A DNA stretch of 64,000 bases. Origin: Amoebophrya sp. A120 (Eukaryota > Protista > Dinoflagellata). A model generated the notes under the pieces. It searched no databases. It saw only the letters and a program-made list of their open reading frames with translations, and had not been told where the DNA came from. Positions 8,653 to 59,603 of the stretch are shown here, piece by piece. The stretch's first letter is position 1; each line of letters opens with the position of its first letter. The DNA lies in NCBI GenBank assembly GCA_905178155.1, contig CAJINV010000002.1, forward strand, positions 3,114,515 to 3,178,514. Reading direction: 5' to 3'. The translations under genes and the position numbers were made by a program.

Positions 8653-10803
8653 ATGGGCAACGGACGCAGTGCGTGTACGGGTGACCAAGTAGACCACAGT
8701 ACTACTTCTACAGCGAACGCATCTGAAACAAGGGGCTACAGGTCCTCCGCATCACAGTTGTTCAACAACTTCCAAAGCTTGTTTGACGCAGCACCAGTAC
8801 AGGCGACAGGACCTCCGAGCCCCGACGCCCCCGTCGAGGACATGTTGGACGAGAAAACCGGCGTTCGCATACGGCGAATCGCGGCCCGGAACGGCGGGCC
8901 GGTGGCTGCGACTGGCAGGCAGGATGCGAATTATGGTGATGCCGAAGTAGTAGCTCCAGGAAGTAGTGCAAGCACGGCTCCTTTCTCAATCAAAACCCCG
9001 GTTCTCGACCAGAAAAAGCAGAACGCGGAGAAGAACAGCAAGAAAAGGAAGCCTTCGCCAAGTACTAGAGACAATGAGGACAATGCCAATTCTGCCACGA
9101 CCGGCGATAAAAATGGAGATGAAATATCAAGTGGTAAAGCAGCGAAGAAACAGAAAGGGAAACAAGAGGCTGGTCCTAGTGCCGCTAGCACAGCGGCAAC
9201 GTCTTCAAACAACTCCTCTGACCAAGACGTTCGGTTTGACCGGGTGATTTTCCTGGGTACGAGTTCCGCTATCCCGGTCCCGGGGAAAAGGAATATGTCC
9301 TCCATGCTGATCACCACCAACACGGGCTCTTCGATGATGGTCGACTGCGGCGAAGGGACGCAACACCAACTAAAGGTCTGCTCCCGGGCGAAGGCGAGCT
9401 CTCTCGACATGATCTGCATCACACATTTACATGGGGACCACTGCTACGGGTTGTTCGGGCTGTTGTTAACGTGTGGGACAGACATGAGGGTAAATCCGCT
9501 GCTAATCGTCGGGCCGGAAGGGGTATAGAGTGGTTTTGACTTCGCTGTTTTATTTTATTTCTCAGCACGGCAGGTAATTCCTCAGCACGGCTGGTTGTGG
9601 TTCAACTTCAATTGCTTCGCTCTCCATCATCTCGTGCGCGCCCTCGGAAGACATGTGTATAAAGTTGTCATACGAGAAGACCATTGTCCCAATCATGGAA
9701 AACGAAATCGCAAAAGGCAATCAATAAAAAAACAGATCCACGACCTGGTGATGAGCGTGTTCAAACACTCCGGCGGCTGGGCGGGTTACTACGACATTCT
9801 CTTCATTGAAATTCCGAACGAGAAGCACAAATTGAAAGAAGACGTGGACTTATCGAAAATGATAGCTACCAGCTCCAACAACTCCATTAAAACCCGGTTA
9901 ACCGCCGTCCCGCTGGTTCACGGCATGACGTGCTGGGGGTACTGTTTCCAAGAGCCCGACCGACCGGGGAAACTGGATATCAACAAGGCGAAGCAGTTAG
10001 GCGTTCCCGTCGGACCGTTGCTAGGGAAATTGAAGAAGGGGGAGGATGTGACTTTCATCCCAAAAGCAGACAAGAAACACCCGGACAGCACTACTTCCGA
10101 ACATCAAATGATAACCGTCAAGGCTTCTGACTGTGTTTCGGAAACCATCCCCGGCCGGAAGGTTTGCATCCTTCAAGACAGCTCCGATAGCAGTTACGCG
10201 GTCGCGAATGGGAGTTTGAAAAACGCAGATTTGTTTATCCACGAAGCGACTTTGGAAGAGGCGATGCGAGAAGAATGTATCGAGAAAGGACATTCTACGC
10301 CGAAAATGGCCGCGGAGTGGGCAAATGATTGCAGCGCGAAAAAATTGGTGTTGACGCATTTCTCCGCCAGGTACAATGAAAGCACCAGTGCGATGTTAGG
10401 GAGGACGAGACTCGGGAGGATATTAAACGTTGATAATATCTCACCAGCGACAATACCAGGAGGTCATGGAGAACTACAAACAGACGCGCTTTGCTGCAGC
10501 ACAGAATCGTCACCCACGACGGATGCACAAGATGTTGATCAAGATTCTTGCATCGTGATCGACCCGGCGGACCAAATATTGGCGGCCGAGGCGCGGGAGG
10601 TGTTTGAAGGTGAGGAAGTGATCGCGGCGAAGGATTTTCTGATGCTGGATGGGCAGAACGGGTTTAAGGCTTGCCAGGAATTGATGGTAAAACGAATGCC
10701 GTGGGGGAGACCGGTAGTTGACGAGGAAAATGTTGTCAACCTCAACAGCGCTGCGGCAAATAAACCTAAAAATGCAGGGGCTGATACCGCGAAAAGAAAA
10801 TGA
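8653..10803 (+). CDS. rnz: Ribonuclease Z (tRNase Z short form, ELAC1/Rnz-like) with N-terminal extension; GT-AG intron 9523-9735
   Basis: FLGTSSAIP, DCGEGTQ, ITHLHGDH (HxHxDH), GP-type exosite GVPVGPLLGKLKKG, HEAT, GHST and LTHFSARY motifs; the intron joins GPEG to IHDLV in frame. Confidence 0.92.
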
Positions 10804-11701
10804 AACTCAACAAATATATACTCGCTCGTAATAGCCGGCTCTCTGAACAACGGATCAAACGACGCTTGTTGGCACGTCGCGATGAAGCAGCGTGCTCATA
10901 ATTTCGTCACTTCACAATATAGCTTCCCTCCTTGCTGATTCATCGCAAGAAGTAAGGAAGGCGTGGTGCTTGTTTCGCGCCGTTCAGTACATAGAAGTGT
11001 TCCTCCAGCAGGCCGGGAATCGCTTTACGAAAGGATACAGATTTGTTGTAAAACTCATCTTCACTGATCTTCAATACTTCGTTGATCTCTATCATCAAAG
11101 CCAAACCGCTTCAAGTATAGCTGCTCCGAAGATCTCCTTGAATAGCACATGTGAGAAGCTCCACGTAATTGTAAAGGTAGGAGAATCTGCATCAATAGTA
11201 GGTCGCATTAGTTCTTCATCCGCGGGGGCAGATGAGGTCATCAAGAAATACCGACAATGTTAGCTCCATCTTGACGCTTAAGTTTGATGTTCGTAAATTC
11301 ACAAAAATGAAAATACTAGAGCTGCAAATTTGCCAAAGGTCTTACTCAACATCCACTGCAAATTCAAAGTACTAAAATGGATATGGATTTCTAGAGAACT
11401 TCTTCTGCGATAACACATACTAGAGCACATGCTGTAACACATACACAGGCACTGATACTGATAGAGGACTCATCTAGTAGCTAGCTTATTGTAGTGGTGT
11501 AGCTGCTAAGAAAGTGTCGTAGTTCTCTTCGTGTTGGGTGTTACTAGTACTAAAACGCTCACGCCTCTAGTTGAGCCGCTACTACCAACCAGTAGTTCCT
11601 GTGGAAAGAACGAGGACGCGGGACGCCAAAAGCTAGTGAGCTCCGAGGACGTCGAAAAGCGGAGCAGCTGCGATCATCCTTGGAGGATCCACTCCAAAAA
11701 G

Positions 11702-14700
11702 ATGTACGGCGGCCACGCAAATGGCGGCGGTCACGGGCAGTACCCAAATTACGCTGCTGCAGCCGCCGCAGCACAGCAGCAGCAGCACCATTACGGGCAG
11801 ATTCCCGGGCAGCAGCAGCAGCCCGGTGGCGGACAACAGGCTCATTACCCACAGCAGTACGGGCAGGTCCCGCATCACCCGCCACCCTACGGGCCGCCAC
11901 CAAACATGATGACCGCTGCGCATCAGCAACAGGCACAGCAGCAGCAACAGCAAATGGCCATGGCGATGGCGGCGCAGCAGCAACAGGCACAAGCCATGGC
12001 AATGGCCCAGGCGCAGCAGCAAATGCACTATAACGCGCAGCAACAGGCTTTTGCGGCAGGATACAATGCGCAACTGCAGCAACAAATGTACACAGCACAA
12101 CAACAAATGCAGGCAGCGGCAGCGCAGAAAGGTTCGTTTGGAATGTTTTTCTTTGATAGTAGAGCTCCTGCCGTGTGACAACATCAATTTCTGTATTTGT
12201 TTTGCAAGCAGCACAGAGCATATTGAGTGGGTTATCGTATATGATTTATTTCGCATGACAAGTTTTTGTTCATCGTACCTACACTACTAGGCACCACTCC
12301 CGGGACCGCGAACGGCGCGAACACAACGCCACCCAACGGTACCACCAGTGGCCCAAACGCGCAGACACCGTCTACCACTTCCGGCACAAAAATGTACGGC
12401 ACCGCACAGCCCTTCGTCCCGATGAGCCAACAGAAAGGCGGAAATAACGCGTCTTCCCCCATGGCAATTTCCAATCCTGCGGACCAAACCCCAACGGCGA
12501 CACCCCAGAAATTATTCCAACAGCAGCAATTTCCTTTGAAACTCGACTCCGAGGAGGCAAAAATCGACCAAATTGCCAAGGCGATGTCGCAGAAAACTAG
12601 CAGTTCCGCGGATTCGGTTTTAAAACCCCACCCGGGTCCTGCGCCGCACAACAACGGGAGCGGCACGGAGTCGACCATTCCGTCAGCGAATGGTACTAAG
12701 GGGCAGGCGTTACCGAAGACGGTCTCGAAGGAAGGCCAGCCGGGGATTGCGGTCTCACTGGAAGAAATTGCGTTTTTCATGGAAGACATGGAACGAACGG
12801 TCTGGTGGCTCATTAAGGCGGGGAAGGTATAGGATTTTTTGCTTGATTTGTGTTGCAGTTCGTTGCAGCATCCGGCGCACGACGACGAAGACGTCGGATG
12901 AAGCAGCACGACTTGCACAACTTCTTGTCATTATGCCATGCAAGGTACAAACTTCAATTTGCTAAAGATTTATACGAACAAAATCCTTATAAATCAGGTG
13001 AAGCAGCAAGAGTTAAAAAACCTGGAGGAATCGAAGAAGAAAGCCACCACCCCCTCCGACCTCAGTTCCCTCGCGGCGCAGCTCCAAGCCAAAACCTTCT
13101 CCACCCAGGCGGATTCGCCGGATAGCATTTTGCTCAAGGGGTCGGAGGAATTGCCGAAGGATGAAGAGTTGGCGAAAACCTGTGACTGGTGGTCAGTGAT
13201 GGAATCGATTGAAAAGAACGTTCTCACCCACATCGATATCCACAGTAAATTTCCCGTACACGTACAAATGCGGTCTCTGCATGAGAAAACCTGGCCCCGA
13301 TCTTAGCTTAGCATGACAAGTATTTTTACTGGTGAAGTCTGTGATGCATTTTGTACATGTACGGGAAATTTGTATTGCATAATCGAAACCCATGAACACC
13401 AGTTACGGTCGAAGATGTTCATCGTGGTGCAGCCGACAAGGGAGCAGAAGGAATTATTAGATATCCTGTGCAAAAGTATCGTACTCGTAGTAATCGCAGT
13501 TATGCATTACAAATCTCCATCTCAAGGCAAAACAGCATCACAAATTCGATTTGTCATGCTGAGCTAATTTGTATTGCAATTACTACTAGTACGATACTTT
13601 TGCAGTTCATACTAGACGTCTTGACACTACTCCGGTTTAACTGCGGGGGGAGAATTATCATCTTCGACATTCCGAACCACGAGATGAACCACAAAGCTTT
13701 GTGGCATTGCCTCCACGAGAACTTGATCAACCAAGTCCCGTTATCCTGTGTAAAAACGTCCCCACCCCAGAGTTGTCATGCAAATCTGCATGAGCTGGAA
13801 TTGGAAATGTTTTTCATGCGGAGCCCCATGAGAAGCATTATCCAGTCGCGTTTTGGAATTTGTAATGCTCCAAGTCCAACCAGCATCATATACTAGATCT
13901 GTGATGCTGCTCAGCTAGCTCAAACAGCCCTAGTACACTACGAATCCAAATTTGTCATGCAAAACAGCCAAAACTTGTGGATTTGTCTAGCCGAGTCCCC
14001 ATCTTGACTATGGGGTGCTGGGGACGTTTTTACATAGGATACCCGTGCTTCGGCGTGCAGGCGGATTTGGTGGAAGGCGGGTTGACGCAGGAGAAATACT
14101 TCATGCAGTGCCTCTCTATCGTCCCCTACATCAAAATATCCAATGCAAAAATGTCTGGATCTGGAAAAGTGTAGACTTGTCATGCAGATTTTCCATGACC
14201 CATGAGGTCTGGAATGCGGGACTTAGCATGACAGACTCTGGGAGGTCTCTGCCATGCCTATCCTGCATGAGAAACTCCCTTCTAACTTGGTCAAAAGTGT
14301 ACAGCTTTTGGCACTCACGCAACACAGATTTTTGCATGCTTCAGATTTACCATGACAAGTTGCAATCTTCCAGACCCAGACACTTTTGCAATTCATACAA
14401 AATCCCGGCGGGCCAGCAGGGAAACTCGCACGACAAAATCAAGTTGTATAGCGTCTTATGAATTGCAAAGATGTCTGGGTCTGGAAGATTGCAACTTGTG
14501 ATGCTATCTTTAGATTCCAAAAAAGTCTGTATTGCATGACCAGCAAGAGGATTCCAGTTTGTGCTACACGGAGAGGGCATTTCTCATGCGGTAGAGGTAA
14601 CACAAAGCGCTCTAAAGATCTGTGATGCTACAGTATGCATCACAGACATCATGGGTCATGGAAAATATGCATGACAAAGCTAAAGATCTCTCAGACCCGG

Positions 14701-17499
14701 ATATTTGTGCATTTGATACGTCTTTTTCCCGGACAAGAAGAGAAAACACTGGTCGTTTGTTAGTGGCGAGGTGAAAGCCGGGGGACAGCACACGAACATC
14801 GCGATGGCGGCGCACGAAATTTGGAGTGAAACCGTTGGGGTTTTTTACCAGTGGACTTGGAACCGATGTTTTACCAGTATAGGATTTTGGATTATATTTT
14901 GCTTACGTTCTTGATGAAGTAATATGAGTGATTGTGTTTGTACGCACAAGCATTTCCCTAACTTGTACCTCCGCATGACAAATTTACACCAAAATAAACG
15001 AATCCATTTATCAGAAACCAAGCCCTTCCTGTACGCGAACCACGAGCGCGACGGGACGAAATACCCCATCCGGCCGTACCTCTTCGTGGAAGCCACCCCA
15101 GAATTCTACGAGTACACGTGTCATGAGCTGAAAGAGGCGATTCCGAACCCACTGGAATCAACCGTCACGGTCAATTACGTGCGTTACGACGAGCCGAAAG
15201 AGGATACCAGGATGATCCACACGCAAGGGCATTATTTCAAGAACCACGACGATGGGGCGTGGTTGGATCTGGACTGGGACAGCGGGCGGTTGTCCAGTCG
15301 GAAGATGGGGGAGAAGAGCCATATCAGGAGGGACGTGGAATTACTGTTCAAACAGCAATATGCACTGCAAAAGTAACTCGTACTGCGTTGTACGAATTGC
15401 ATCACATCAAATTTTTTCAAGAACAAAAATGGAGCTTGTGATGCTATATCCGGTAGAGAGAAATCGATTTGTGATGCATGACGGCAATCAGTACGAGTGC
15501 GAAGATACTTTTGCAATGCATAAGCAACCCAGGAAACTGTGGTCGAGCCTATTCGGGCCGTTGTTAGAGAAATCAGAGGCGGAGTGTAATGCGGTTTTGG
15601 GGAAGGATTTACCAACAGATCCGCCGTTCGTCGTGCAAATGCAGGGGATCGACAAAGCAGCTACGGATGAAGATATTTTAGAGTTTTACCAGGATGGCGC
15701 GCCACACTGTATATGTTGTTTGTAGTTTTGGGGTGATGCGGAACATGCTATGCTGTATTGCAAAAATCTTGTCGCGGCTACTCTTTGGTGTAGCAGGTTT
15801 GGGCCACCAGCAGCCTCACGTGTACGTTCTTGTGTTCTGTGCGAAGTAGATCCAAGAATTTAAAAAATGGCAAAAATACTTTATCAACCAAACTCTCTCA
15901 GGCCAAATCCTGTCCGTGACGCAGATGCAGGAGCCCCGGCACAGTGCCCGAGTTGAATTCGTCGACCAACCATCGCTGCGGGTCGCGCTCCGCAAGCACA
16001 ACGAGTACCTGAAGAGAAGGAAAGTGAAAATTGAGCTGTGGCACGACGGCATGGGCAGTGGGCTGCCCGTCGCGAAACAAAGTTCGGTCACTGGCGGGTC
16101 GTCTGGCGGGAAGGATGCCGTGGTGCCCATGAAGGGGAGGTCACAGGTATAGAAATTATACTCGAGCATTTGTGTTGGAAGATATTTATACCCGCATGCG
16201 AATAGAAAGACAAGGCCCCTGTGAAGAAGCACGCAATAAGTAGGTCTTGCACCTTTTATTCCGAGTTCTGCTTGAGTATCATGCAGAAACGAAATGCTGT
16301 CCAAAACCCTATCAGGTCGAATACTCCGGTCCCTTGCCGAAATCCCCGCCCTACAAGTGCGTCTGCCGCAATCTCGACCGCACGGTGACCGATAACGACC
16401 TAGGGTACTTTTTCTGGGATCGGTATCCCACGAAAAAACTGTTTCACTGGGATGCTTTTGTAAGATCTGCATCACAAGTTTGTTACACATGACACAGAAA
16501 ATCTGCCATGCGCGCTTCCCAAGGGAAAACGTTCCTAAATGTCCAATGTCTTGCGGGTGTAGCAAGACAAATACTTCTGTGTTCCATTCTATACATCACA
16601 AGTTCACACTGAAACAGTTTTTTCTTGTGATAATCGGGAGTGCGAGCCCAAGGTGATCTCTATGGAAGCATGCGGAAAACACACGGGGATCGTGGAGTTC
16701 GGCACGGTGGAATTGTTAAAATCCGCTTTGAAGTGGAACGGAGTGGTTTTCAAGGGGCGGGAAATCTCGGTCTCCCTCTACGACCCGTCGGACGAAAACA
16801 GCCACGCAAATGGAGAGGAGGGCCAAGGTGGGAACAAGAGCAGCTCCGGCGGTAACCCGAGAACGAGTCACAAGTCTTCCATGTCTTCCCCCACAGAACA
16901 CGACTCGGAGACAAGAGAGGGCGGTGATTCGGGGGAAAAGAAATTCGGAAGAAGATCAGGGTTTTTGGGTCGAGGTGGTGATGGCGACGGGAAAGACCGA
17001 GGGGGGAAGAACAAAGGTACTTATAGAATACGATACATTGACTGTGAAATAAAAATGCAGCACATACGGTGTAGTTCTCATGCAAAATCTGCATCAGGAG
17101 ACAAAAACTCTGTCATGCGAATAACCGCAACTCATATCAACCCCCACCCTAGGTAACAAGTATGGGGACCGGGACCGCGACGGTTACTACCCGAAGCTCC
17201 CCGGCTCCACCTACGGTCGCGACAAAAACCCGAGGAAAGGCTCGGGAGAAAAAGACAGCACGGATCGGGACCGGGATATGGACAAGGTCTGGGAACGGGG
17301 AGTGAACCGCGCCGGCGATATTAACCGGGACAACAGTAGTAGTAATCCCCGGAAGGGAAACAATCGCGACAGGGAGAATGGTGGGATGTCGGCGAACAAT
17401 AGTAGAAATCGTGATCGGGGGGACGACGACAAAATCGCGATTAAACAGAATTTCAAGGACACGAAAGCAGACCATGACGACAATTGGCGGCGGGGATAG
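11702..17499 (+). CDS. Q-rich protein with a degenerate Nudix-like segment, two eIF4B/eIF4H-type RRMs and a D/R/Y/G-rich tail; about 13 introns
   Basis: GT-AG introns 12132-12290, 12827-12997, 16147-16315, 17017-17152; probable GC-AG 15697-15901; eight introner-type introns. RRM starts LPTDPPFVVQMQGIDKAATDEDILEFY and LPKSPPYKCVCRNLDRTVTDNDLGYFF; ends ADHDDNWRRG*. Confidence 0.75.
13237..13381. mobile_element. Introner family E
   Basis: IR aaatttcccgtacacgtacaa/ttgtacatgtacgggaaattt; TSD ATCGA. Confidence 0.9.
13462..13611. mobile_element. Introner family B
   Basis: TSD TTAGA/CTAGA. Confidence 0.9.
13742..14041. mobile_element. Introner family C
   Basis: TSD CCCGT. Confidence 0.92.
14137..14397. 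mobile_element. Introner family A
   Basis: TSD CAAAA. Confidence 0.93.
14457..14718. mobile_element. Introner family A
   Basis: TSD CGTCT. Confidence 0.92.
14878..15009. mobile_element. Decayed introner-type intron
   Basis: Starts tataggatttt, residual IR with aatcc, flanks ACCAG/ATCAG; the frame needs a 137-nt removal. Confidence 0.6.
15359..15522. mobile_element. Introner family B
   Basis: TSD AGCAA. Confidence 0.9.
16424..16632. mobile_element. Introner family F
   Basis: IR gaaaaaactgtttca/tgaaacagttttttc; TSD ATCGG. Confidence 0.9.
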
Positions 17500-19411: not shown

Positions 19412-20760
19412 TATCTGGTAACCAAATGCGTGCGCGCGCGCGCGCAGAGCGCGCGCCGGCCCACGAAGCCGGCGCGCGCGCTCTGCGCGCTTGCGATATT
19501 GCTTAGCAAACGCAGCGCGAAGGCAGTTGCCGTTACCATATAGGGCAACCGCCGGGAGCCGTGAAGGTCAGGGAAATGGCCAGAAATGAAGCGGGAGAAG
19601 GGAAAAAAAGCGGACCAGATGGGAAAATGGCCAGGAGGGCAAAAATGTCGCAAAAACGGCAGAAACCAAGCGGGAGAAGGTGAAAAAAGAGCACTTTTGC
19701 GGTTTGGCCCACTTGATATCTGAAAAAGAGACGGACTATTTTTTGCTCCGCCCGGTGGCCAGCTGCGTTGGAGAAGCAGGCCCGCGACCTGTTCGGAAGC
19801 CTTGGGCCGCTTCGTAAATGGAAAAAGTTTGAAAAAAATGGCAAAAAATTGCTTCATAACGTGGGTGGGAGCAATCGTCGGATTTTGTCCAGATCACCCG
19901 GGCCACTTGGAAAATGGAAAAAGAGAAAAAAATGCGCAAAAGCGCAATCCCTCCGCAGGCTCCAAAATTGCCAGTCAGCTGCGGTCGGTGAAAATGTGCA
20001 GGTCGCCCGGGCCACTTGAAAACCAGAAAAAAGAGCGAAAATTAAAAAAAATCGAGAACCCTCGGCAGGCTCAGAAACTGGCCACCAAGGGCGGTCCGGC
20101 GGGCGCGCGCTTGCGCCGTACCATCGCGATTGGGAAAAAAAAACCGCATTAGAAGCGGGCGGGGGTATGTCACAAAATCCCCATTTGCCCTAGGTTGTGA
20201 GCAGAAATTCGGCATCTTCTCCGGGTCTGAAATGGCCGATTTTGGTGGCCCAGCCCGGGTTCTTTGGTTTGCGGTTTTCCACATACCTTCTTGGCCAGGA
20301 GGCCAGTTTGTCATGCAGGGGGCTAGAAAGGATGCCCCGCTGCGAAGGGGGATGGGGGGGGGCTTGCCCCCCCCGGCCACATACCTTCTGGGCCAGGAGG
20401 CCAGTTTGTCATGCAGGGGGCTAGAAAGGATGCCCCGCTGCGAAATAGCAAACCGGATTTCGCCTTCAATGCTTATCGCAGGAGCCTGCGGGCCGCCGCG
20501 GGCGACAGTAGTTGTCCGCGGCCCTTTAGGGCCGCGGGGAAGTGGTGGGGCCCGCGGCGGCCCGCAGGCTCCTGCGATAAGCTTTGAATGCGAATCCGGA
20601 AGCCTCCGATGACCCGGGATAGAAGTGGGATTCTAATTAAAAAGAAATGGCGGCGGCAGCCGTGCGGCGAAAGCGCGGCCCGCAGGGTCGCGCTTTCGCC
20701 GCGCGGCTGGTTAGGCTTTCGCGCTGGTTAGATTTTCGCGCACGCATTTGGTTACCAATA
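19412..20760. repeat. GC-rich intergenic element bounded by a 21-bp inverted repeat, with internal hairpins and a 68-bp direct repeat
   Basis: tggtaaccaaatgcgtgcgcg 19416-19436 vs reverse complement 20737-20757; hairpin 19441-19489; direct repeat 20279-20346/20377-20444; perfect 33-bp IR 20471-20503/20550-20582. Confidence 0.75.
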
Positions 20761-25135: not shown

Positions 25136-25137
25136 GG

Positions 25138-25325
25138 TATCCTGTGCAAAAGTATCGTAGTACTCGTATTGCAATCATGCATTACAAATCTTTTTCCTGA
25201 GGTAAATCAGCATTACAGATTTTATTTCTCATGCTGAGGAAATTTGTAGGTTATTAACCCATATTTCTATACTTTACCAATAAGAATAATGCATTTATAC
25301 GAGTGCGATACTTTTGCAGTTCATA
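25138..25325. mobile_element. Introner family B with an extra internal ~36 bp
   Basis: TSD TAAGG. Confidence 0.9.
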
Positions 25326-26837: not shown

Positions 26838-27372
26838 AATAAAAATAAAATTTTAAAATTTCGCGGATTTGGTAAGCTTTAAATGAGCCAATGGAGCAAG
26901 AGAAATGGTGTGACTCGCCCTGCTTAAAGACAAAAAGCAACACGATGTTGACGCACCCTCCGATAAAGATGAAGCTTCAAAGTTTCGCTGATTTGCTATT
27001 GCAATAAAAATAAAATTTTAAAATTTCGCGGATTTGGCTAAGCCATAAAAATAAAATTTTAAAATTTCGCGGATTTGGGATCATCTGTATTGGTGACAAG
27101 TCGTCGCCAGACCACGACGCTTGTAGGACCGCTTCGGATGTATCAGTTTCGTTCGAAAACCATTCTAGCTTTGTCGTTTGGTTTTTGAGCTCAATAAAAA
27201 TAAAATTTTCAAATTTCGCGGATTTGTCATCGTGTCTATTGGCGACAAGTCGTCGCCAGACCACGACGCTTCAATCGCTTCGGATGTATCAGTTTCGTTC
27301 GAAAACCATTCTACCTCAGTCGTTTTGGTTTTTGAACTCAATAAAAATAAAATTTTGAAATTTCGCGGATTT
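26838..27372. repeat. Five copies of aataaaaataaaattttaaaatttcgcggattt, including a ~147-bp tandem duplication
   Basis: Copies near 26838, 27003, 27046, 27193, 27340; block tattggYgacaagtcgtcgccagaccacgacgctt...gaaaaccattcta occurs twice. Confidence 0.85.
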
Positions 27373-27458
27373 CCGCGAAGTTTGAAACTTTCGTGAACAG
27401 CAATTGGTCGATGTTACAGTATTATCGTGTCCTTATTTCGATCGAAAACCGACGGGAA

Positions 27459-28291
27459 ATGAAGAAAAAAAGCAGTGTGGTGGAAGTATGTATTCAGTAT
27501 GAGTTTGTACGACGTACCACGACCCAGATCTCCATCATATCAACGAACTTTTTTGATCTGAAGCAACTCCAACTCCGGGGAACAGAATTTCAAATTTTTC
27601 CTACCCATAATCCTCCACTTCCTCCCGACAGCAGCGAGCCAGCGTGAACAGCCACTTTTTCGAGTCGAAGCAGGAAAATCAACGGAACAAGGAGAAATTT
27701 GAGGAAGTCGCTTCGGATGAGGAACAATTACAGTGGGAGCACGAAGATGAAGTCGAAGAGTTTAACAACAACCATCCCGACTCCAAACCCATCCCCTTCG
27801 ACTACGAAAGAGAAGTCTCGGAGGATTTGCGAAAGCAGGAATCCGCAAAAATCCTCGAGAAATTTCCCACCCGCGTCCCCCTGATTTGCGAAAAGCACCC
27901 AACCAACGGGAAGTTTTTGCCGACACTGAAAAGGAAGAAATTTCTAGTGCCGGAAGTGATGACGCTGGCGCAGTTTTCGCTGTTGTTGAAGCAGCAAATG
28001 GACTCGGAGGCGCAGGAGGAAGCGGACGCAGGAGGGGGAAGGAGCAGTGCTATTGCAAGATCACCCGCCGGCGGCGGTTCTTGTCAACCGGATCACCAAG
28101 CCGCAGTGCAGCAACCCAGGCGCCGCCGGTCGGTCAAGAACACGGCGCTGTATTTCCTCTTGAAAAACCGGCAAGCGCCGATGTTGAGCCACGAATTGAA
28201 GCAGTTATATGGGAAGAACGTAAGTGAGGACGGGTTTCTCTACCTGCACTTGTGCGAAGAGGCGGTTTTTGGTGCTGGGGGTGGTGTGTGA
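27459..28291 (+). CDS. ATG8: ATG8/LC3/GABARAP-family ubiquitin-like protein with acidic N-extension and internal insertion; probable intron 27486-27631
   Basis: RKQESAKILEKFPTRVPLICEK, KKFLVP, EDGFLYL and C-terminal EAVFG-AGGGV. The ORF lacks an ATG; upstream exon MKKKSSVVE followed by GTATGT joins in frame. Confidence 0.85.
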
Positions 28292-29126
28292 AGCGCTGCA
28301 GCTTTGGTCTACAAAGTCGAAAATACGTATACGAGTTTTTGAAAGAATGAATTCAGATTGAATTGCAGGCAAGATGAACATCAGTATTTGTGTGCCACCT
28401 CTCCGAGAATTTTTTAGTCTGCTACTACGCCTAGTATCTACGGTCGTTTTTACGTCGTCTTCTGGAGGTGCCTTGTTTCCTACTCCAAGATATTGCGCAT
28501 GATGTGCCCTTTCGTCCTCGTTTCAGATTGTTTAACAGGTTCCAGTCTTCGTGCAGCTCTACGGCATCTTGTTCTCTTCGTGTTGTTGTATATTCGATTG
28601 TGATCATTTTGTTGCTAGATAAAAGTAAGTAGACTGATCCGCTACTTGATGTTGTTGACACTTTTTTACATGTACACCACCACCTGATTCCATTTCTTCA
28701 GCAGCAAAAATCACACAGTTTCTGTTTCAAACACAAGAGCTGCGGCTGCGGCATGCTTCTTGTTGGAACGCAACAAGGCAGATGTTTTGTTCCGCCTCTG
28801 GTAGTTTTTTTTGCAAGTTCGCAAGACCGTGCAGGAGGACACGCGGGCTTTTTCTTTCGAAAGCTGCTGATTCATGCAGCCACTGCAGGAGCGGGGGGTG
28901 GGTAAAAATGACAACCGAGGTTCCTTTTTTGATTAAGGAGTGGGAGAATAGGGAAAGGGATCTTCGTGATATATTTTTTGGCGATTTATTTGAGGCCGCG
29001 AAGATGGCAAGTATTTTCTGGTCGCTTGAATCGAGTGTAGATACGACCAAGAATTTGATCACTTCCTCTCATCGCATGCGCAGCAAGTAAGTGTGAAAAA
29101 CTTTCTACTAAAGTTGCAAACACAAC

Positions 29127-32100
29127 ATGGCCGCTCCCGCTGCTACCTCGCTGACTCTTTTGGAAGACGTGTCCTCGCCTTGGGACAGTTTTCCAGTGAG
29201 GAAAAGTGAGACTCTGAAAGAAGTGCCGGCCACAAGCGGTAGCAACATGCAAGACAGCACGACAGGACCAAGAGCTACACCTTCACGCTGCAGCGACATA
29301 AACGCGGACGCAGTAAATGTAAAAGTAGACGCCGTGGCACAAGAGCCCCCCCGGCTACTGACCGACCTCCAACTGGCCCAGTACCTTGTGGACTCGCAAA
29401 TCTGTGCAAACTTGCAACATCAACGTCAAACGACGGTGGAGGTGGTGTTTGAGAGTAGAAGTGCGTCGTGTCCTGTCCGACGTGAAGAAGAAGATGCTCT
29501 TGCAACAACCTCCAAAACAGGTACTAGTAAAAATACAACTGGCGCCACATCACAGCCGCTGCGAATTGTGAAGAAGAGCAGCGCAACTGCAACTGCAACA
29601 GAAGACGGTGGACAAGGGGAACAAGATATTAGCTCGTTTTCTGAACTAGCCAGCCTGAGTGTCCACGTGTGCCAAGCGGCGGTGGAGGAAGGGATGCAAA
29701 CAAGCGATAACGACGATCCGTCGGAAAGAAGCTGGCATGAGGAAACTACATCAGACCACGTTGAGGAACATCAAGAACTACATCCTACTTGTGTTGCAGC
29801 ACAGCATGACAACCCGAATAATTTACTTGCTGAGCAGCATGACAAAAACGACCGCGACCCAGCGACGGACGACGACCTAAACGACGCCGAGCTCGATGTC
29901 GCTCAGGACGACGACGATAGCAGCAGCGTGACCTTTTCGGTCGCGGAATTTGATGTCATGCAGAAGGACAAGCCGCAGTCAGGAACAGCAGGCTTGCGAA
30001 CTGCAGAGTCCGCGCATAAACAGGCAAATCGTCATCCATCTCCGAAGACATCATCTTCGAGGCCGACGCCGGTCGTTGTAAACAAAAATCGCATGATGCG
30101 AACCAGACCCGCGACAGCCGGGGCGACTGCAACAGCTGCGACCCCCGTCCGCCCTCTGACCGCGGGGGGAACCAGACAACGGCCACAGCAGCAGGCGGAG
30201 CATAACTTTCTCACTTCCGGTTGTTCCACGGTTCTTGGCAGCAGTTGTGGAGAATATCAAAATTCGAGAACGCCTGCTCCGGGAGTGACAGTGAACTCGA
30301 CATCAAAGACGGCAAAGAAATCCTTCCTGGAGAAAACGCCGTGGTTCTTCGAAAGTCAAAACGACGCGTCTACTGCCCACGACCTCCAAGTAGGACCACT
30401 ACAACAGCAGGCCGCGAACTACGACAGCCACATACCGTTCCAAAAACGCAAAGAAGCCTTGGAATGGGATTTCAACTCGACATTGAAAAAGCTCCGAGAC
30501 CTCTCTGGACAGGGGAAGAGACCGCAGATTCAGGAGTTTTTGGACATTGTGGACTCCGGGATTGTGTTCGACCGGTATGGGAATTTGAACACGACGGGGG
30601 CTCATCTTTCCACTTCTCCAAACAACACCGGCACGACGGGAAACTGGCACTCCATCTTCTCCACCTCCGCGCAAGACGTCGGAGCAGGTTGGAGAAATAA
30701 GCAAAACTACAGCTCCCGACCAAACACGGCTTCTGGCGCTGGGACTGCAGCTTCTGATACACGCAAGAACTGCAGCCGACCTGCTAGTCGGAGCGGTGGG
30801 AGAACGAAGAAAAGTTCTTACCAACACCGTCAGGTCCCGGGTGATGTTGCAAATGATGAAAGAGGAGGCGTTCTTGCAGGTGAGCAGCAGAATGTGAATG
30901 TCACCACGATAGACCCGCACGACGTTGACAACGCCACTCCCTCTCCGCAGAAGAAAAAACAATTTTACGATACCAAGCGGCCCAAATCTTCCGGGCAGTA
31001 TGGCGGTCGAGGCAGTAGTACGACCAGCCGCCCGACCACGCCCCGCCCCGCGCCAATCATAAACCCGTTTACAGTGACCTTGCAGCCCAAGCCGCCGGCG
31101 GGTGGAGTGGGTGGCGCTGGTCGAACTAGAAGCAGCAACACCACCAGGCCGGTTTCCGCCCGTCCCGGTGCTCAGCACAATCTAAACCTGGCAGGCGGGC
31201 GGGTGAATGTCAGCACGAGACCGAAGTCTGCGGCGCCGGGCAGAAGCACGACAATTCAGTTGAATGTCAACAAAATGAAGAGCGGGAATACGGGGGTGCC
31301 TGTAGCTAGTGTTTTGGCACCAGATGCCGGTCCTGCAGAAGATCACAGTAACAGCAAGAATGCCGGCGTGGAGAAGTCAACGCGGCCAACGACCTTGAAA
31401 CCAAAACTTCCAGGTCAACATCAAGGTCGAGCTACTACAGCGGCAATTTCTACAGCTACAAAAGATGTTGAAAATAAAGAAACCAAACAAAATAACTCCC
31501 CCCTCTTCCCACCCGTCCTGCCTCAACAACAGACTGAGTCGACTTCTTCCCTGCAATTCACCGAGATTGACAACCAAGTCTCGCCGAAAGCCTGGAAAAC
31601 GCAGATGCGGAAAAACAAGAAGGAGTTCTGCCAAAGGTGGAAACGAGAGCAGGAGACGCAGGAATTTGAGTTGAAGCAGGCGTTCGAGAAAATTGAGGAG
31701 GAGTGCCAGATATCCTGTGCAAAAGTATCGTACTGCTCGTAGTAATTGCAGCCATGCAGTACAAATCTTTGTCTTAAGGGAAATCTGCATTACAAATTTT
31801 CGTTGTCACGCTGAGGATATTTGTATTGCTATTCCTACTAGTACGATGCTTTTGCAGTTCATACCAGAACACGGATCTGATGCACCCGAAAATGAAAGAA
31901 GCGAAGGAGATTTTGAAAAGGGAAGTATCCCCGGAGTCTTTCCGCTACGGAAGATATTGGGAATACGATGCGGACGAAGCGTTTATTTTGCAGGAACAAA
32001 AAGAGGAAGAAGAGCGGAAGCTGAAAATCGAACAGGAGTTAATGGCTGGAACTTGTTCTAGTGGGGGTAGACGGAGGGGAAGTGACTTGAAAAGGAAAAC

Positions 32101-34518
32101 AACAACGTCGAATTTAATATCGGGGCAGAACATCAAAAGTGGGACTGCTGTAGCAGCAGGTTCTTCCGGCGGCGCAACCGGAACGACTGCAGGTACTTTC
32201 AATGCGGCAACACCAATGCACCAGACGGGAGCAGCTCCGGGAAGCACAACTCACACGAATCCCTCTTCGCCGATGTCAGTCTTCGCCGGCTCTCCGAAAA
32301 CTGGAAAGAACACGACCACGGTAACAACATCAGCCGAAGCCGCAGCTCTCTCTTCAACCAGTAAACTGAAAAAGCGGATGAAAAAGAAAGTAGAAGCGAA
32401 ATCTGCGAACGCCTCGCCCGCGAAGGGAGGCTGCACGACAAGTGCTGGACATAGTCAAATAACGCAGCAAGATGTTGGTGCCGCTGGTGGCGTTGATAGA
32501 AGCAAGAAGGAGAAGAAAAACGAAAAAGGATCGACGTGTAACACAACTGGTCCACCAACTACGAAAGCTGCAACTAAGAAACCCGATGCAGCTTCATCTA
32601 CAACTAATCCCGCAAACGACCCGCCTTTACTCTTCTCCGCTTTTCTCGACCAAGAGCTCACAACCGAGGATAAAGAGATCCGCGCTCTAGCGAAGCGGAC
32701 GAACATCCCGGTGTTATCCTGTGAGAGGATCAAACAGGTTTTCGACCTCTACGACGAAGATGAGTCTGGGAAGATGGAGTACCCAGAATTCGAAAAAGTG
32801 TTTCTCCAGCTGTTAGGAATCGCCCCTCCCTCCCCAATCGTCCAAGATGAGGACCAAAACGTATCCGATTCCGATTTTTTCTCCTCCGAAGAGGATGAAG
32901 AGACCCGGCAGAAGCGGAAGCAGATTTTATCCCGGCAGAGCAGTAAAGAGAACGAACAGCGGAGGATGACCAGACAGCGGTTGTTTTCCTCATTGGGGCT
33001 GGGGCCGGGCATGTTCCAGGAGAAGTTGGAATTGAAAAACTTGGAGTACAAACACATACTGGGAGCAGCCGCGACGGGAACAAGCAGCAATAGTGCGAAA
33101 AAACCGCATGACAAGTCGTCTTCTTCACCGACAAACACCAACACACATCTTACCAAAAGCCACGTGAACAGCATGATTCCGCCGACACGGGTGAAATCTT
33201 TTTGGTTAGACGTCGACCGAGATAACTCGGGCGAGATTGAATTCGAGGAATTCTTGATCTGGTTTTACCACACTTTTGAACTCCCAACCAGGTCGGAAGA
33301 AGACCTCCGGTTCGAACGCATGAATGAAACCGCGAAGCAGTTGTCACCGGGGAACCGGGGGTTGTCGAAAAAGGAGGTGAATCGGTTACGGGAGAAACGG
33401 GAAGAGGATTTAGTGGTGCGGAAATTGTTGTTCGGACCTGGGTTTGACGGCGGTGGTGGAGCAACAGGGGGAATTAGCTTGGAGGAACAAGAAGGAACAC
33501 TTCAAACTTCTGATGCAAAACATCAACAAGCAGCGAAAAATACTAAGATCACGACCCACAACAAGCTCCCGATCCGAACGTTAGATGACGATGAATCCTT
33601 CTACCCGCCACCCTTTGTTTACAAGCCCGAGCTCTGTGAACGGCCGAACTCCGCGGTGCCTGGGGGGAGTAGAGCGAGGCGGATGCCGCGGACGTCTATG
33701 AATTCCACAACGAACGACACCGGTGTCCACTTCGTCCCGGATCACGTGCACGAAATGCAGATGAGTTTGCCACCACGGCCGGCTACCGCAGGTGGGGGAT
33801 CCAGAGTGCGAAACCGTTCGGGACTCGCGGGGGAGGGTACTAGAAACCAGCAATTTAATATCCCGATGAACAAGCAGGACCTGTTTTCCACGACCGAGAA
33901 CCAGCCACCGCGGTCCCTCACTCCCCAGGAACTCTTCTACTCGGTCGCCATCGGCGGGCGGGGGCGATCCGGGCTAGTCCGGGAGCAGATTATGCGGGGC
34001 GGGCAGTTTTATCAAATGCAAAAATGTCTGGGTCTGGAACCTTGCTCGACTTGTCATGCAGGTTTTCCATGATCCATATGATCTGTAATGGAGGACCTAG
34101 CATGACAGGTTCCGCGAGATCACTATCATGCCTATCCTGCATGAGAAACTGCCTCTCAACTTGATCAAAAGTTGGCAGCATTTGGTAATCATGCAACACA
34201 GATTTTTGCGCGATTCAGATTTAGCATGACAAGTTCCAACTTCCAGACCCAGACAGTTTTGCAGTGCATAAGTTTAAGAAAAATTCGGAACTCGATTCGG
34301 AATTTCAGCAGTGGAAGATGGAAAACTGCCCCTGGCACAACGAAGAGAAGGATCGAAAGGCGAATTTCCTAGTGCAGAAAAACCAACAGATTGCGAACGC
34401 GAAGCGGAATAGACATTCGGTCAGCCCAGGGTCGCCGAAGGTTTTGAACGCACTCTCTCTGCGAGGCGGAACTCACGGTGGAGCTATGGCGGCGACGGCA
34501 TTTGTGGCCAGGAGCTGA
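29127..34518 (+). CDS. Large low-complexity protein with two EF-hand motifs; two introner introns
   Basis: ORFs 29127..31742, 31826..34072 and 34264..34518 join in frame after removing 31711-31868 and 34010-34275; EF-hands DEDESGKMEYPE and DRDNSGEIEFEE. Confidence 0.82.
31711..31863. mobile_element. Introner family B
   Basis: TSD CCAGA. Confidence 0.93.
34010..34270. mobile_element. Introner family A
   Basis: TSD AGTTT; body similar to 14137-14397. Confidence 0.93.
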
Positions 34519-35807
34519 TCAGGTTCAAAAGCTTAGCGTAATTGAGGAACAAAGGATGAATATGAAAGGTGGAACTGGCGAGTACTAGTAGTAGCAAGTC
34601 ATTCTGTGGCAGCTCGAATAGGAATATAGTAGTACCAGATTCGTTTTCGCATGAAGAACCAGAAACAGTCGCATTAGTTAATTTAGTTTAGTAAAATTTG
34701 TCAGCTTCAGATACCTAAGTTCAGATTGAAGACCGTTTAGTTCTCTACACGCAGTACAACACGATAAGGTGAAGCGAGCACATGAGCAGTAAGAGAAACC
34801 GAAGAAAAATCGTATAGCATGATTTTGCAAAGAAAGACCACTTCACGAAGCAAGACGAGCTAAAAGCACTACATAAAAACGAAGGAATATCAAGATCGAG
34901 TGGTGATCATTATCGGTAGCATAGCCTCATTGCTGTACAATGCACGGTCCGGAAACTGCCCTGCTTTTCAAGACCTATTTTGCTATTAAAGTTGATGAAA
35001 GACATAGACAACACTTGTTGCTCCAAGTTCGCAGTCATTTTCTACTTGTGCGTGGTCCTATTGTTCCTCTAAGAACCGCGGCAAAAAATCGTACGACCAC
35101 GGCGCTGCAATAAGAACGAAGCACATCACTTGAGAGCCCCCGAAGAACAAACATCTCGGTTGTTTTTTTTCATGCACGACGTCAGCGCAGTCTTCACCCT
35201 GAGAGAGCAACGAAATGACGAAGCGCAGACACTGTTTTCGGTCATCGTGATGAATACAACAGCTCTAAGAAGCGGAAGCCGATGGAATGGTGATGTCGGT
35301 CGTTTTTTTCTGGTGAGCCTGAGCCTGAGCTCGAGTGCACGTGTTGAAATTGGAATTCAAAAAAATTTTCGGTTTCTCGTGTCTGTAATGGCCATAATAA
35401 GGTCGTGTCGTACGTACAAGCAAATGCGAACGTTATTATATCACAATACGTCCAAGAACTAGAACTACACGTCGTTTTTTTCGTCACGTACAAATATGCG
35501 TACTACTATGTTGTTGGAACGTTCTATCGCTGAACCATCTTCCACTACTCCACAGGATTCTGAAGAGCAGCTACACAGGCACACTTCCCCGTGCTCTTGT
35601 GTAGTTTAGCTTCTTGTTGTCCTCTCCCGCCTATAATAAGTAGTACTTATTACAGGATTTTACCTCGTCTGCAGTAGCAGATTATACCTACAAGAGCATC
35701 CTGTGCAGGATATCATAATTTTCAACAAGCTTATTGCAGCTTAGTTGCAGAAGTTTGAATCTTGGTTTCGCACACGAACCCCCTACTGACAAACCTAACT
35801 CGACAAG

Positions 35808-38800
35808 ATGGCGACCAAGTTGGGTGCGATCGCTGAGTTGACTCACGATGACAAGAAGGAGATCGTGAAGCAGATGTTGGACGATGACGACGAGGACGAC
35901 GTATTGATTTTGATTTTGTTTGCTCGTATGCATGACAAATCATGGCTTTCATGTACGGCTCCGCATGAGAAATCGAAATGTGAAAATGTAAATTGTACAA
36001 CTACATCGCCTCTGTCATGCCAAAACCACAATAAAAACTACAGGAACCGTCCGACTACGATTCCGATGCGGATGGCGTCCTGCCGCCCTCCAAGCCGGTC
36101 CCAGCGTCCCACTGGGTGAAGGGAGCTCTTTATGAAATGCAAAAATGTCTGGGTCTGGAAGGATGCAACTTGTGATGCTGAATTTGGATTGCTACAAAAA
36201 TCTGTATTGCGTGAACAGCAAAAGAGGTCCAGTTTTTGCCACGGCGAGAGGGTATTTCTCATGCGGTATAGGCATCAGGAAGCCCTCACAAAATGAAAAT
36301 CTGTGATGCTGAGGCATGCATCACAGACATCATGAGTCATGCAAAATGTACATGACAAACCTTGCATCCTTCCAGACCCAGACACTTTTGCACTTGATAC
36401 GCTTGTCCGCGAGACAATGGAAGCCGTGGAACAGATGGCCAAGGATGGACAGCTGGTGAAGGAGACGGACAACCGAGGCAAATCGAAGATGAGCTTCATT
36501 GCACCGGTATAGAACTTGTACGCGTTTTTTGTCATGCATGTTGAAACCGCAGAATAGGTGGCACTTGTCATGACAGGATAGCATGCTAGCTATCCTGCTC
36601 GCAAGAAATCGAACAGCAACTCCTCAACATCAATTACAATTTCTCATACACAAAAACAAACAGGACGGGAGCAAGGAGTTGGTCGGCAAGGTGGCTCGGG
36701 AGCAAGGCCAGAAGTCCATGGCGTTGAAGTCCATGATGACCAGCAAGATCGGCTCCGGCGGCGGCGCTGGCTGGGCGAAGGGATCCATGATTCTCGCCGG
36801 TGCGTACAAAGGTGCGGATAAGCCGTCTGACGCGACCTTCAACCACAAGCGGTCTTTATGGATTGCAAAAATGTCTGGGTCTGGAAGGTTGTAACTTGTG
36901 ATGCTGTCTTCGGATTCGAAAAACATCTGTATTGCATGAGGAGCAAAAGGAGTCCAGCTTGTTCTACACGGCGAGGGCGTTTCTCATGCAGATAAGGCAT
37001 CAGGATTCCCTCTAAAAATCTGTTGTGCCTGCCTTTTCGCGCGCCAGCCCCTTTTGCTTCTACTGCTACAGCTCGTCTTACGAAAGGCCTTAGAATTTAT
37101 TCCCATACATATTTAGATTTACAAGCGCTTAAGTAGCAGTACTAAGTTTTCCGATTTACTTACTTTTTCAGTAGAAGTTTACGTTGCGCAGTATTAGCAT
37201 TCATATATCAGTTTTAGTAGGCCTCTGAACGGCAAAGGGACGAACAGCCCGTAGACCTCCGATGTGATGCCAGGTTATGCATTACAGACAACATGGGTCA
37301 TGGAATATCTGCATGACAAATCTACAAATCTTCCAGACCCAGACATTTTTGCATTTGATAGTCTTCCATTGGCTGGGGTGACCCGACCACGTCGAGCTTA
37401 ATGAAGATGGCGCTGGACCCGACGAAAGTATATTAATGGGCTAGAATTTGATAAACTGATCTAGAACTAGATATCAATGCCTGACCATGCATGAGAAACC
37501 GTGATGTTTTTACGCATCTCGCATGACAAATCCATGAAACACTAAACCCTCACCCTGAACACGAAAAAACACCACAGCCCATCCCTCACCTGCACAAGGG
37601 TGCGGACGTGAAGGTCGCTTTGGTTGGTGACCTCGGTACCAAGTGTGTCTCGCACTTGCCGCGACGGTGGCACGAGGCGGCTTTGTCGGTGCGGGACACG
37701 ATTTACGACCCCGATTTCTACGATGATGGCACCTACGGCCCGCTCTACATCCGGTATTATAATAGTGCTTTTTCTTGCAGTCTGTGCATGAGTAGAAAAT
37801 GTAGCTGTCATGCCGAAAGATGCAACACAAATAAGAACCGGAAGAACCTGCCTGTCTGCAGAACAAGTCTCATACATTCTGTCATGCTAAAAAACTATTA
37901 CAACAACCATTACAGTAACTGCATCCACTCGTCCCTGACCTACAACAAACACGACGGTACCGGAGGGTTAGAAGGCGCCACCATGCGCTTCCGCCCGGAG
38001 AGATCCGACGCGCACAACCGGGCGTGTGACCACGTGCACAAGAGAATCGAGACCCTCGTGAAGAACAAGCATCCCTGGATTTCCTTCGCGGACGCGTTTG
38101 CACTCGCCGCGTACGTCGTGATTGAGGTGTCCGGCGGGCCGATCATCCCGCTGAGCGTCGGCAGGAGAGACAGCGACGGTAAGGTGTTTGAGGGAACCAA
38201 TATCGAGCGGAAACCGGTCATGCCGGGGAGATTGCCCATGCCGGAACAAGGTATGATTTTTCGATTTGTATTGCGTTTTTTGGTTGAAAGCTTGACTTTG
38301 CCATGCATGATCTGCACCGAAATGGAGATGACTACAGTTTTCGCATGTAATATCGATACAACTCTGTGTTTGTCATCATGCAAAAATACAATAAAAACTT
38401 CAGGTATCCACGACGAGGAGCAAGAATTACTGGCTATTGCCGACCAGATGCGCCGCATCTTTCTCGATCGCGCGGGCGTTACCGAGCAGCAGATGGTGTG
38501 CTTAATTCTCGGCGGTCACTCCTACGGGCGCTGCCACCAGCATATCTCCGGCTACGCGGGCCCCTGGCAGCACAACCCGGGAAGGTTTAACAATATGATG
38601 GCGTGGAATCTGCTGAATCACGAGTGGAAACTGGTCGATAAGACGATGGAGGACTGCAGTGGAGATTTGATCACCGGTCTGAAGCCGAGAGGTATTGATT
38701 CATATTTTTGTGTTACATGGAATTTTCGCATAACAACAAAGACGAAGAGTTTGTGATGCGTTGTAACCCTAACCTACATGGATGACCATTAGCAAATGAG

Positions 38801-39156
38801 AGAGAGATCATTTTTGTCATGCAGAAACGCAATATCGAAAATCTAAATTAGGTATCCGACGGCAGTACGTGAACGAGAACGGTAAGGGCGGCATCATGAT
38901 GTTGATGTCCGATATGTGCCTGATCCGGCAGCCGGCGTGGCGCAAATGGGTGGAGATCTACGCCAAGGATTCGAACCGGCTGAAGCGCGATTTCGGCATC
39001 ACCTTCAAAGCCGCAACGGAGCTCGGCTGGGTCAAGCCGAAGCAGCCGGAGTCCTTCTGGGAGGGAGTGGTGATGAAGGTCAAGGCTATTCCGCAGATGA
39101 AATTGCGGGAGATCGCGGAGTTCGTCTGCTGCCGGGAGGAAACTTATTACCGATAG
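35808..39156 (+). CDS. Class I heme peroxidase (cytochrome c peroxidase/APX-like) with a ~200-aa N-terminal extension; 8 introns
   Basis: YDDGTYGPLYIR-NCIHSSLTY, GTGGLEGATMRF, ISFADAFALAA, GRRD, GRLP, LGGHSYGRCH, SGYAGPW, MMLMSD. GT-AG introns 35901-36043, 36507-36663, 37428-37577, 37754-37915, 38251-38403, 38692-38851, plus two A introners. Joining the N-terminal exons to the peroxidase depends on intron 37428-37577. Confidence 0.82.
36131..36399. mobile_element. Introner family A
   Basis: TSD CTCTT/CGCTT. Confidence 0.92.
36857..37360. mobile_element. Introner family A carrying a ~240-bp internal insertion
   Basis: TSD GTCTT; family A body interrupted at about 37024-37262. Confidence 0.9.
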
Positions 39157-59155: not shown

Positions 59156-59603
59156 CAGAGCTCCTCAGTGGCTACTTCAGATGTGGTTAAAGTCAAGAAC
59201 CTACGGTCTAAAGTGACCGCTGTAGACATTAACTTATCGAAACATAAATCAAAAGCTCGTACATCTCATGCATCCATAGCGTTCGAAAAAAATGAAAATC
59301 GTCAGAGGCTAAAAGACCTCCTTATGCTAAAGAAAGAATAGAGTCAGTTTCATGCTGTAGAAAAGAACTTCACTTCTAAAGAAATCCGGCACTTGCATAC
59401 GAAAAACTTCTTCAGATGTCTAGACATTCAAGGACAAGCTAAAAAGTAAAGATTAACCACGAAAGATGAACCATGATTAGGAGATACACGTATAAAGCCA
59501 CGAATAGGTGGGAAAGAGGATGATGTACTTACCACAAAACGAAATTAATACATAAATGATAGACAAATCCAAAAAAAAGTTCAGCAAGTAGGAGGAGGTC
59601 TAC

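Follow-up and report, generated by a model that had tools for sequence, protein, structure and literature searches.

Canonical introns and introners of Amoebophrya sp. A120 share an internal sequence box and possibly a splicing code

We analysed 64 kb of DNA from the dinoflagellate Amoebophrya sp. A120 (contig CAJINV010000002.1, positions 3,114,515 to 3,178,514 of the forward strand; hereafter the window, with coordinates counted from its first base). Its genes carry two classes of intron: GT-AG introns, and introners, which are hairpin elements running from TAT to ATA. How A120 splices out its non-canonical introns, which number tens of thousands, when no U1 small nuclear RNA (snRNA) is detectable in it, is a question posed in 2021. 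A first-pass annotation of the window regarded its GT-AG introns as domesticated introners. Here we describe a nine-base box that recurs inside both classes, which we read, with moderate confidence, as sharing one adapted splicing system.

Genes and GT-AG introns

All modelled genes, and with them all introns described here, lie on the + strand, matching the unidirectional clusters reported for the genus. RNA evidence covers positions 22100-42000 and consists of contigs taken as RNA by guess, together with raw RNA reads. The contigs are spliced and agree with the raw reads at a peroxidase gene; our statements on RNA joints rest on the joints listed (15 of 61) and the contig pieces listed (24 of 1,334). 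The spliced model of 35809-39157 is identical to the 546-aa heme peroxidase of A120, and a model with 13 introns over 11702-17499 reproduces the annotated 1,101-aa A120 protein P0121 exactly. The peroxidase gene has a 3' untranslated region of ~1 kb (39158-40181), which raw RNA reads show ending in poly(A) at 40181. Metagenome contigs, searched for genomic DNA of relatives, gave three loci at 45-53% identity, two aligning as a single uninterrupted segment and one as two in-frame segments, and the exact 9-mer of the box occurs in none of them. Viral contigs and prokaryote genomes, searched for relatives' genomic DNA, returned 0 matches. An Rfam scan of the window likewise gave 0 matches, and no snRNA was found in it.

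We assembled a set of 19 GT-AG introns that are not introners, of which at least nine are shown by RNA, six are supported by identity to P0121 and four by an open frame only. As a set they combine a GT donor with a YAG acceptor, the U2-type arrangement. RNA joints define 22499-22653 (donor GTATTA), 23038-23147 (GTAG), 23601-23725 (GTAC) and, in the peroxidase gene, 35901-36043 (GTATTG; 263 raw reads), followed by 36507-36663 (GTATAG), 37428-37577 (GTATAT), 37754-37915 (GTATTA), 38251-38403 (GTATGA) and 38692-38851 (GTATTG). Identity to P0121 supports 12132-12290, whose donor is GTTC, 12827-12997 (GTATAG), 16147-16315 (GTATAG) and 17017-17152 (GTAC), along with two introns absent from the first-pass list, 14877-15014 (GTATAG) and 15709-15901 (GTATAT). 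The four frame-based introns are 799-1034 (GTATAA), which lies beyond the span annotated earlier, 9523-9735 (GTATAG), 23894-24005 (GTATAG) and 24719-24851 (GTAA). Removing 9523-9735 keeps the frame open across the domain of a gene that we take to be an RNase Z-like metallo-beta-lactamase (Pfam: Lactamase_B).

Two further intervals were left out of the set. The first, 1080-1271, is ambiguous: it reads either as GT-AG, with CCAGG repeated perfectly at its flanks, or as an aged element that runs from TAT to ATA and is shorter by 15 nt. The frame is kept in either case, and the interval is a candidate intermediate between the classes. The second, 54547-54871, has a T-rich 5' end and an A-rich 3' end and is a probable intron in a very long gene. 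Some counts (donor base +5, position -3, exact 8-mer density, box strand and box orientation within introns) used 20 introns, including 1080-1271.

Introners and their cut register

Our introner set numbers 35, of which 34 were hand-picked from RNA or from a scan for TAT...ATA with terminal inverted repeats (TIRs) and target-site duplications (TSDs), and one, 4635-4997, was picked by eye. Most were frame-checked, the exceptions being 25137, past a modelled stop, and 54948, behind the intron near 54550-54870. The presence of TAT and ATA in 35/35 is circular, coming from this selection, and a 5/5 TSD in 27 of the 35 comes partly from it; eight RNA-shown introners were not selected in this way. 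The set comprises family A (13), family B (10), family C (3) and nine singletons.

RNA joints show the structure of these elements to be a 5-bp TSD, a TAT...ATA hairpin and a second TSD. We found that 8/8 RNA-shown introners fit a single register, N-TAT...ATA-NNNN, in which the downstream cut falls four bases past ATA. The non-canonical intron 26447-27613 of the Atg8 gene (A-TAT...ATA-ATCC; 1,167 nt; RNA contig pieces) permits only this cut, which can be placed because its TSD has decayed, and introners 23207 and 36130 permit few cuts, this one included. Removal of 26447-27613 yields an intact Atg8 protein. The intron contains a 49-nt repeat in five internal copies and an inverted repeat of 30 nt in subterminal position; a strong box is absent. 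Table S4 of Farhat 2021 lists nine leading splice-site pairs for A120, all with T at +2 (PMC7789003), which fits the N-TAT register. The G-TAT of the GT-AG introns is in register with the introner N-TAT, the cut lying one base before TAT in each.

Several elements are unusual in arrangement. Two introners at 5642-6195 have overlapping TSDs and, in the N-TAT...ATA-NNNN register, leave one exon base (5940) between them; on this frame-based reading an 809-aa frame remains open. A family A introner at 36856-37364 is ~2x the usual length, with an apparent internal insert of ~240 nt, and is removed whole (388 raw RNA reads). Between genes, a GC-rich element at 19412-20760 ends TAT...ATA, carries a perfect 21-nt inverted repeat (19416-19436/20737-20757), internal hairpins and three box sites, and is possibly a non-intronic relative of introners. 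Another intergenic fold-back element, 59600-60357, has nested inverted arms and 23-nt tandem repeats, and the box is absent from it.

Donor signal and intron ends

GTAT opens 14 of the 19 GT-AG introns (binomial p ~1e-13 against 1/16) and 7 of the 9 shown by RNA, bearing out a predominance noted in the first-pass annotation; across the window, GT is followed by AT in only ~5% of occurrences. All 12 donors listed in that annotation do read GTAT. Eleven are real or well supported: seven are RNA-spliced (22499, 35901, 36507, 37428, 37754, 38251 and 38692), 12827 and 16147 have P0121 identity behind them, and 9523 and 23894 an open frame only. The twelfth, 27486, is no donor but lies inside intron 26447-27613, as an RNA contig joining 26446 to 27614 in the Atg8 gene rules it out.

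The T-rich 5' ends and A-rich 3' ends described earlier are present as well, with T at 0.44-0.53 over +1..+30 and A at 0.42-0.55 at the 3' end. Over 30 nt the two ends are near mirror images, T/G-rich on the 5' side and A/C-rich on the 3' side. The GT-AG introns contain no polypyrimidine tract, and YTRAY falls within the final 60 nt in only 2 of 19. At the acceptor, 19 introns of the 20-intron set carry C or T at position -3. Lengths of 110-236 nt overlap those of family B (150-193 nt), as had been stated.

A box shared by both classes

Inside both GT-AG introns and introners we identified a box of nine bases, GCA(TG/TC/TT/AT)A(C/G)AA, on either strand. GCATGACAA and its variants are the commonest non-repetitive words of the window. 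As the whole window was the initial source of the pattern, counts within a single class are the fairer test: GCATGACA is the top 8-mer in GT-AG introns (13/19) and, separately, in introner interiors (23/35). A degenerate 8-mer has 30 sites in 17 of the 19 GT-AG introns, against a mean of 1.8 and a maximum of 7 in 1,000 shuffles, and GCATGACAA-type sites occur in 34 of 35 introners. The strict 9-mer reaches 9.0 per kb in introners and 6.7 in GT-AG introns, compared with 0.23 in exons and 0.16 in intergenic DNA, which is ~30-fold over exons. A matrix trained on introner interiors ranks the compartments alike (15.1, 9.4, 0.53 and 0.22 per kb, respectively). In GT-AG introns the exact 8-mer reaches 5.1 per kb (20-intron set), a density like that in introners (4.2), though the GT-AG class has no TIR or TSD; that the box stays dense and intact there argues for selection. 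Within introner families, conservation is 0.87-0.91 in box columns, like that of the TIR, and 0.75-0.82 elsewhere, a comparison that is partly circular.

Boxes show no strand preference (14 and 17 in the 20-intron GT-AG set, 64 and 65 in introners), and they are spaced. In GT-AG introns, 6 of the 12 same-strand pairs have a spacing of 31-33 nt, where 0.53 would be expected (0 of 20,000), and introners have 22 such pairs, which are not independent within families. This distance corresponds to three turns of B-DNA. Doublets lie at 891/924, 23916/23949 and 35930/35963 (33 nt), and at 23064/23096, 23632/23664 and 37489/37521 (32 nt). Intron 38251-38403 has a strong and a weak box 32 nt apart, and two boxes lie 35 nt apart in 17017-17152 and 63 nt apart in 38692-38851; introns 12132-12290 and 24719-24851 also contain the box. 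We considered pairing between boxes inside one intron and rejected it, as 13 of 17 box-bearing introns hold boxes of a single orientation (strict count).

Tests of descent from introners

A GT-AG intron born from an introner must read G-TAT...ATA-NNAG with an NNAGG duplication. Only the family B introner 25137-25329 does so: it reads GT...AG with TSD TAAGG (5/5) and a TIR of 12/16, and it lies directly past a modelled stop. Among the pieces listed, an RNA contig piece begins at 25326, and this piece start fits removal of the element. One such case in 35 is near the 1/64 expected for a random NNAGG site. The suggestion that TSDs ending in G or AGG favour this route stands in so far as an AGG-ending TSD yields 25137-25329, but G-ending TSDs are found in only 5 of 35 introners and we rejected a bias towards them.

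The remaining introns lack such traces. An in-register terminal ATA is present in 0 of 19 GT-AG introns, none has an introner-type TIR (8-20 nt, TAT...ATA), and in-register TIR matches number 0-8 of 14, against 4-14 in introners (at least 9 in 32 of 35); own versus cross comparison gave p 0.51. TSD-like flanks, reported previously, did not hold up: the 19 introns have 41 flank matches against 42.9 permuted (p 0.88), a count lowered by dropping 1080-1271, and adding that interval (flank 5/5) gives 46 against 47.0 (p 0.76). The cases quoted, at 16147 and 38251, are ordinary AG/G junctions. With flank identity no higher than permuted, we rejected TSD relics in GT-AG introns.

Pairing between intron ends was also claimed. 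The ends do pair above whole-intron shuffles (7.9 versus 3.8 bp, p 6e-4), but a 5' end pairs with another intron's 3' end almost as well as with its own (7.6 versus 7.9 bp, p 0.80), making the property class-wide, not intron-specific. The 11-bp match between 12828 and 12980 in intron 12827-12997 exists, with one bulge, but is equalled by 15.5% of 342 cross pairs. An ungapped score alone beat within-end shuffles (p ~0.03), an excess due to T and A runs, and intron-specific pairing was rejected. End-to-end pairs range over 0.8-19.4 in GT-AG introns (mean 7.9) and over 13-26 in 32 introners below 320 nt; two introners also have weak terminal duplexes, so that the ranges of the classes touch. The strongest end pairing of the 19, in 23894-24005, exceeds 99.7% of cross pairs and is marginal after correction for 19 introns (~0.06), which makes this intron the best candidate intermediate.

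The two classes also differ in the composition of their ends. At base +5, a C or G is found in 34 of 35 introners but in only 1 of 14 introns with GTAT (Fisher p 7e-10). Within the first 45 nt, TTTT occurs in 16 of 19 GT-AG introns and 3 of 35 introners, and AAAA in 3 of 19 and 24 of 35, respectively; the run of A that marks introners ~10 nt after the 5' TAT is not a feature of the GT-AG class, in which T runs and A runs are placed the opposite way round from the introner TIR. Within the window, GT-AG introns match neither introners nor one another by BLAST (E 1e-4), although 9 of 35 introners are singletons too. Aged introners (4634, 23207, 24924 and 26447) have lost the TSD and kept TAT...ATA, and hence do not trace a path towards GT-AG. 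What survives of the proposed continuum is a real link between the classes, consisting of the register, 25137-25329 and the shared box; a visible continuum of ends does not.

Discussion

We favour, with moderate confidence, the reading that GT-AG introns and TAT...ATA introners share one adapted splicing system, in which GTAT is a working donor signal and not a transposon leftover. The splicing machinery would read UAU at +2..+4 in both classes, with the +4 U pairing, as it does in budding yeast, to the ACAGA box of U6. Introner ends may be brought together by the hairpin, and those of GT-AG introns by YAG together with loose U/A pairing. Selection probably acts on the box, and strand neutrality with helical spacing suggests a reader at the DNA level, so that its most likely partner would be a protein that binds it in double-stranded DNA and assists in defining introns.

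Published work is consistent with parts of this scheme. Preference for U at +4 tracks loss of METTL16/SNRNP27K, and in yeast this U pairs with the ACAGA sequence of U6 in its unmethylated form (PMC10581693); neither snRNP27 nor U1 snRNA was detected in A120 (PMC7789003). In the same source, GT-AG introns make up 30-35% of A120 introns, position-conserved introns are 98.6% canonical and account for ~19% of all A120 introns, and introner families are strain-specific (PMC7789003). From Farhat's numbers we estimate, by our own arithmetic, that ~55-63% of A120 GT-AG introns predate the split between A25 and A120. These genome-wide figures lean against a recent origin of GT-AG introns and, should the window be representative, many of the GTAT introns that bear a box predate the strain-specific TAT families.

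Several observations weigh against the shared system. All statistics come from one 64-kb window of A120 with 19 GT-AG introns, and the unambiguous register rests on a single contig joint (26447-27613); the legend to Farhat's Fig. 3 describes splice sites as variable relative to the hairpin (PMC7789003). The spliced intron 26447-27613, like 9523-9735 and 16147-16315, has weak box matches only, so the box is not strictly required. The intergenic element 19412-20760 carries its three boxes as a transposase site would. snRNP27 is undetected in A25 too, where introner ends are TTA-purine-purine (PMC7789003), and its loss may therefore not explain +4 U. Finally, in a motif-preserving-shuffle test, GT-AG introns aligned to introners with a mean of 30.7 against null means of 26.4-29.1. 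The matches span 15-50 nt, mostly round the box, and 1 of 19 introns exceeds all 25 shuffles; this small mean excess is also what descent would produce.

Descent in an older form is a strong rival, though one that we hold less likely. Most GT-AG introns would then derive from an older introner wave, with the box a subterminal site of the transposase that survived as a relic or was co-opted, TIR and TSD erased, and the ends rebuilt as GTAT...YAG; such a history is compatible with a shared splicing code. It accounts for the same box at the same 31-33-nt spacing and for the lack of strand bias, as expected of TIR elements, which can insert in both orientations (4/12 family A copies and 3/10 family B copies are reversed), and it agrees with the TIR-like conservation of family box columns, partly circular as that is, with the length overlap and with the small excess similarity to introners. 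Fungal introner-like elements have been reported to decay into regular introns (PMC3609843). Against this history, it requires reversal of the end polarity seen in the T runs and a change at +5; in aged introners TAT...ATA outlasts the TSD; and boxes that stay intact without other homology require selection anyway.

The version in the first-pass annotation, in which present-day TAT introners with a G- or AGG-ending TSD become GT-AG introns and then decay along a visible continuum, is improbable except for a minority. In its favour are the one clear case, 25137-25329, the GTAT in register with N-TAT, the marginal pairing of 23894-24005, and the direct and inverted repeats that Farhat reports in 15% of A120 canonical introns (PMC7789003). 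The chance-level frequency of GT-AG-reading introners, the scarcity of G-ending TSDs and the lack of in-register ATA, TSD excess, intron-specific pairing or BLAST matches all speak against it, as does mean end pairing well below the introner range. Still less probable is insertion of introners into old short GT-AG introns with later trimming, leaving ancestral ends around box debris: it would account for ancestral ends with transposon-like interiors, and the doubled introner 36856-37364 hints that insertion inside introns may occur here, but at the thresholds of our introner scan no GT-AG intron contains an internal TAT...ATA with TSD, and the process would be needed in 17 of the 19, with the box almost absent from intergenic DNA.

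Returning to the shared splicing system, we offer one extension that we regard as unlikely: A120 may mark its introns in DNA, where helically phased GCATGACAA-type doublets would be bound by a protein, perhaps the DNA-binding domain of a domesticated transposase, that recruits a U1-less spliceosome during transcription. If true, a transposon's own binding site would have become the signal for introns across the genome, ancestral GT-AG introns included. Together, the findings separate two look-alike ideas, introns descended from transposons and a spliceosome code that both classes came to fit, and the fixed register and shared box provide concrete sequences for mutation, pull-down and genome-wide counting.

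Comparison with known systems

The introner system is already in print, as is the fact that some canonical introns are introners bearing inverted and direct repeats. The shared box doublet, the fixed register and the mirror-composition ends appear to be new, with one window as their base. We did not find the box or the fixed register in the literature searched, which for Farhat comprised text without the figures (Fig. 3 logos and Figs. S19-S25). A literature search with the 9-mer returned nothing on these organisms among the papers listed. The main text of Farhat mentions no GTAT, subterminal motif, branch point or polypyrimidine tract and the supplement text no GTAT, although the figures may show GTAT and the register (PMC7789003).

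Saccharomycotina with +4 U donors (Parker 2023, PMC10581693) resemble A120, where snRNP27 is undetected, in their GTAT donors. Unlike them, A120 is intron-rich, has A or T rather than G at +5 in its GTAT donors and has no detected U1 snRNA. Fungal introner-like elements (Collemare 2013, PMC3609843) offer a likeness in repeated, structured introns that become ordinary ones; they are described as spliceosomal from the start, whereas A120 has young elements of non-canonical type and no clear gradation of similarity between the classes. Euglenid nonconventional introns (PMC11282704) and the introns of Fritillaria (PMC13326754), which has an altered spliceosome, likewise combine TIRs and TSDs with non-GT-AG ends beside canonical introns. 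Their termini differ from those of A120, and the accessible text of these reports mentions no shared internal box. The closest system is the A120 introners themselves (Farhat 2021, PMC7789003), from the same organism, with TAT-starting inverted repeats, a run of A and direct repeats. Figures aside, that text describes variable cut sites and no internal motif; here, one register fits all eight RNA-shown introners, and the box doublet extends to introns that have no TIR.

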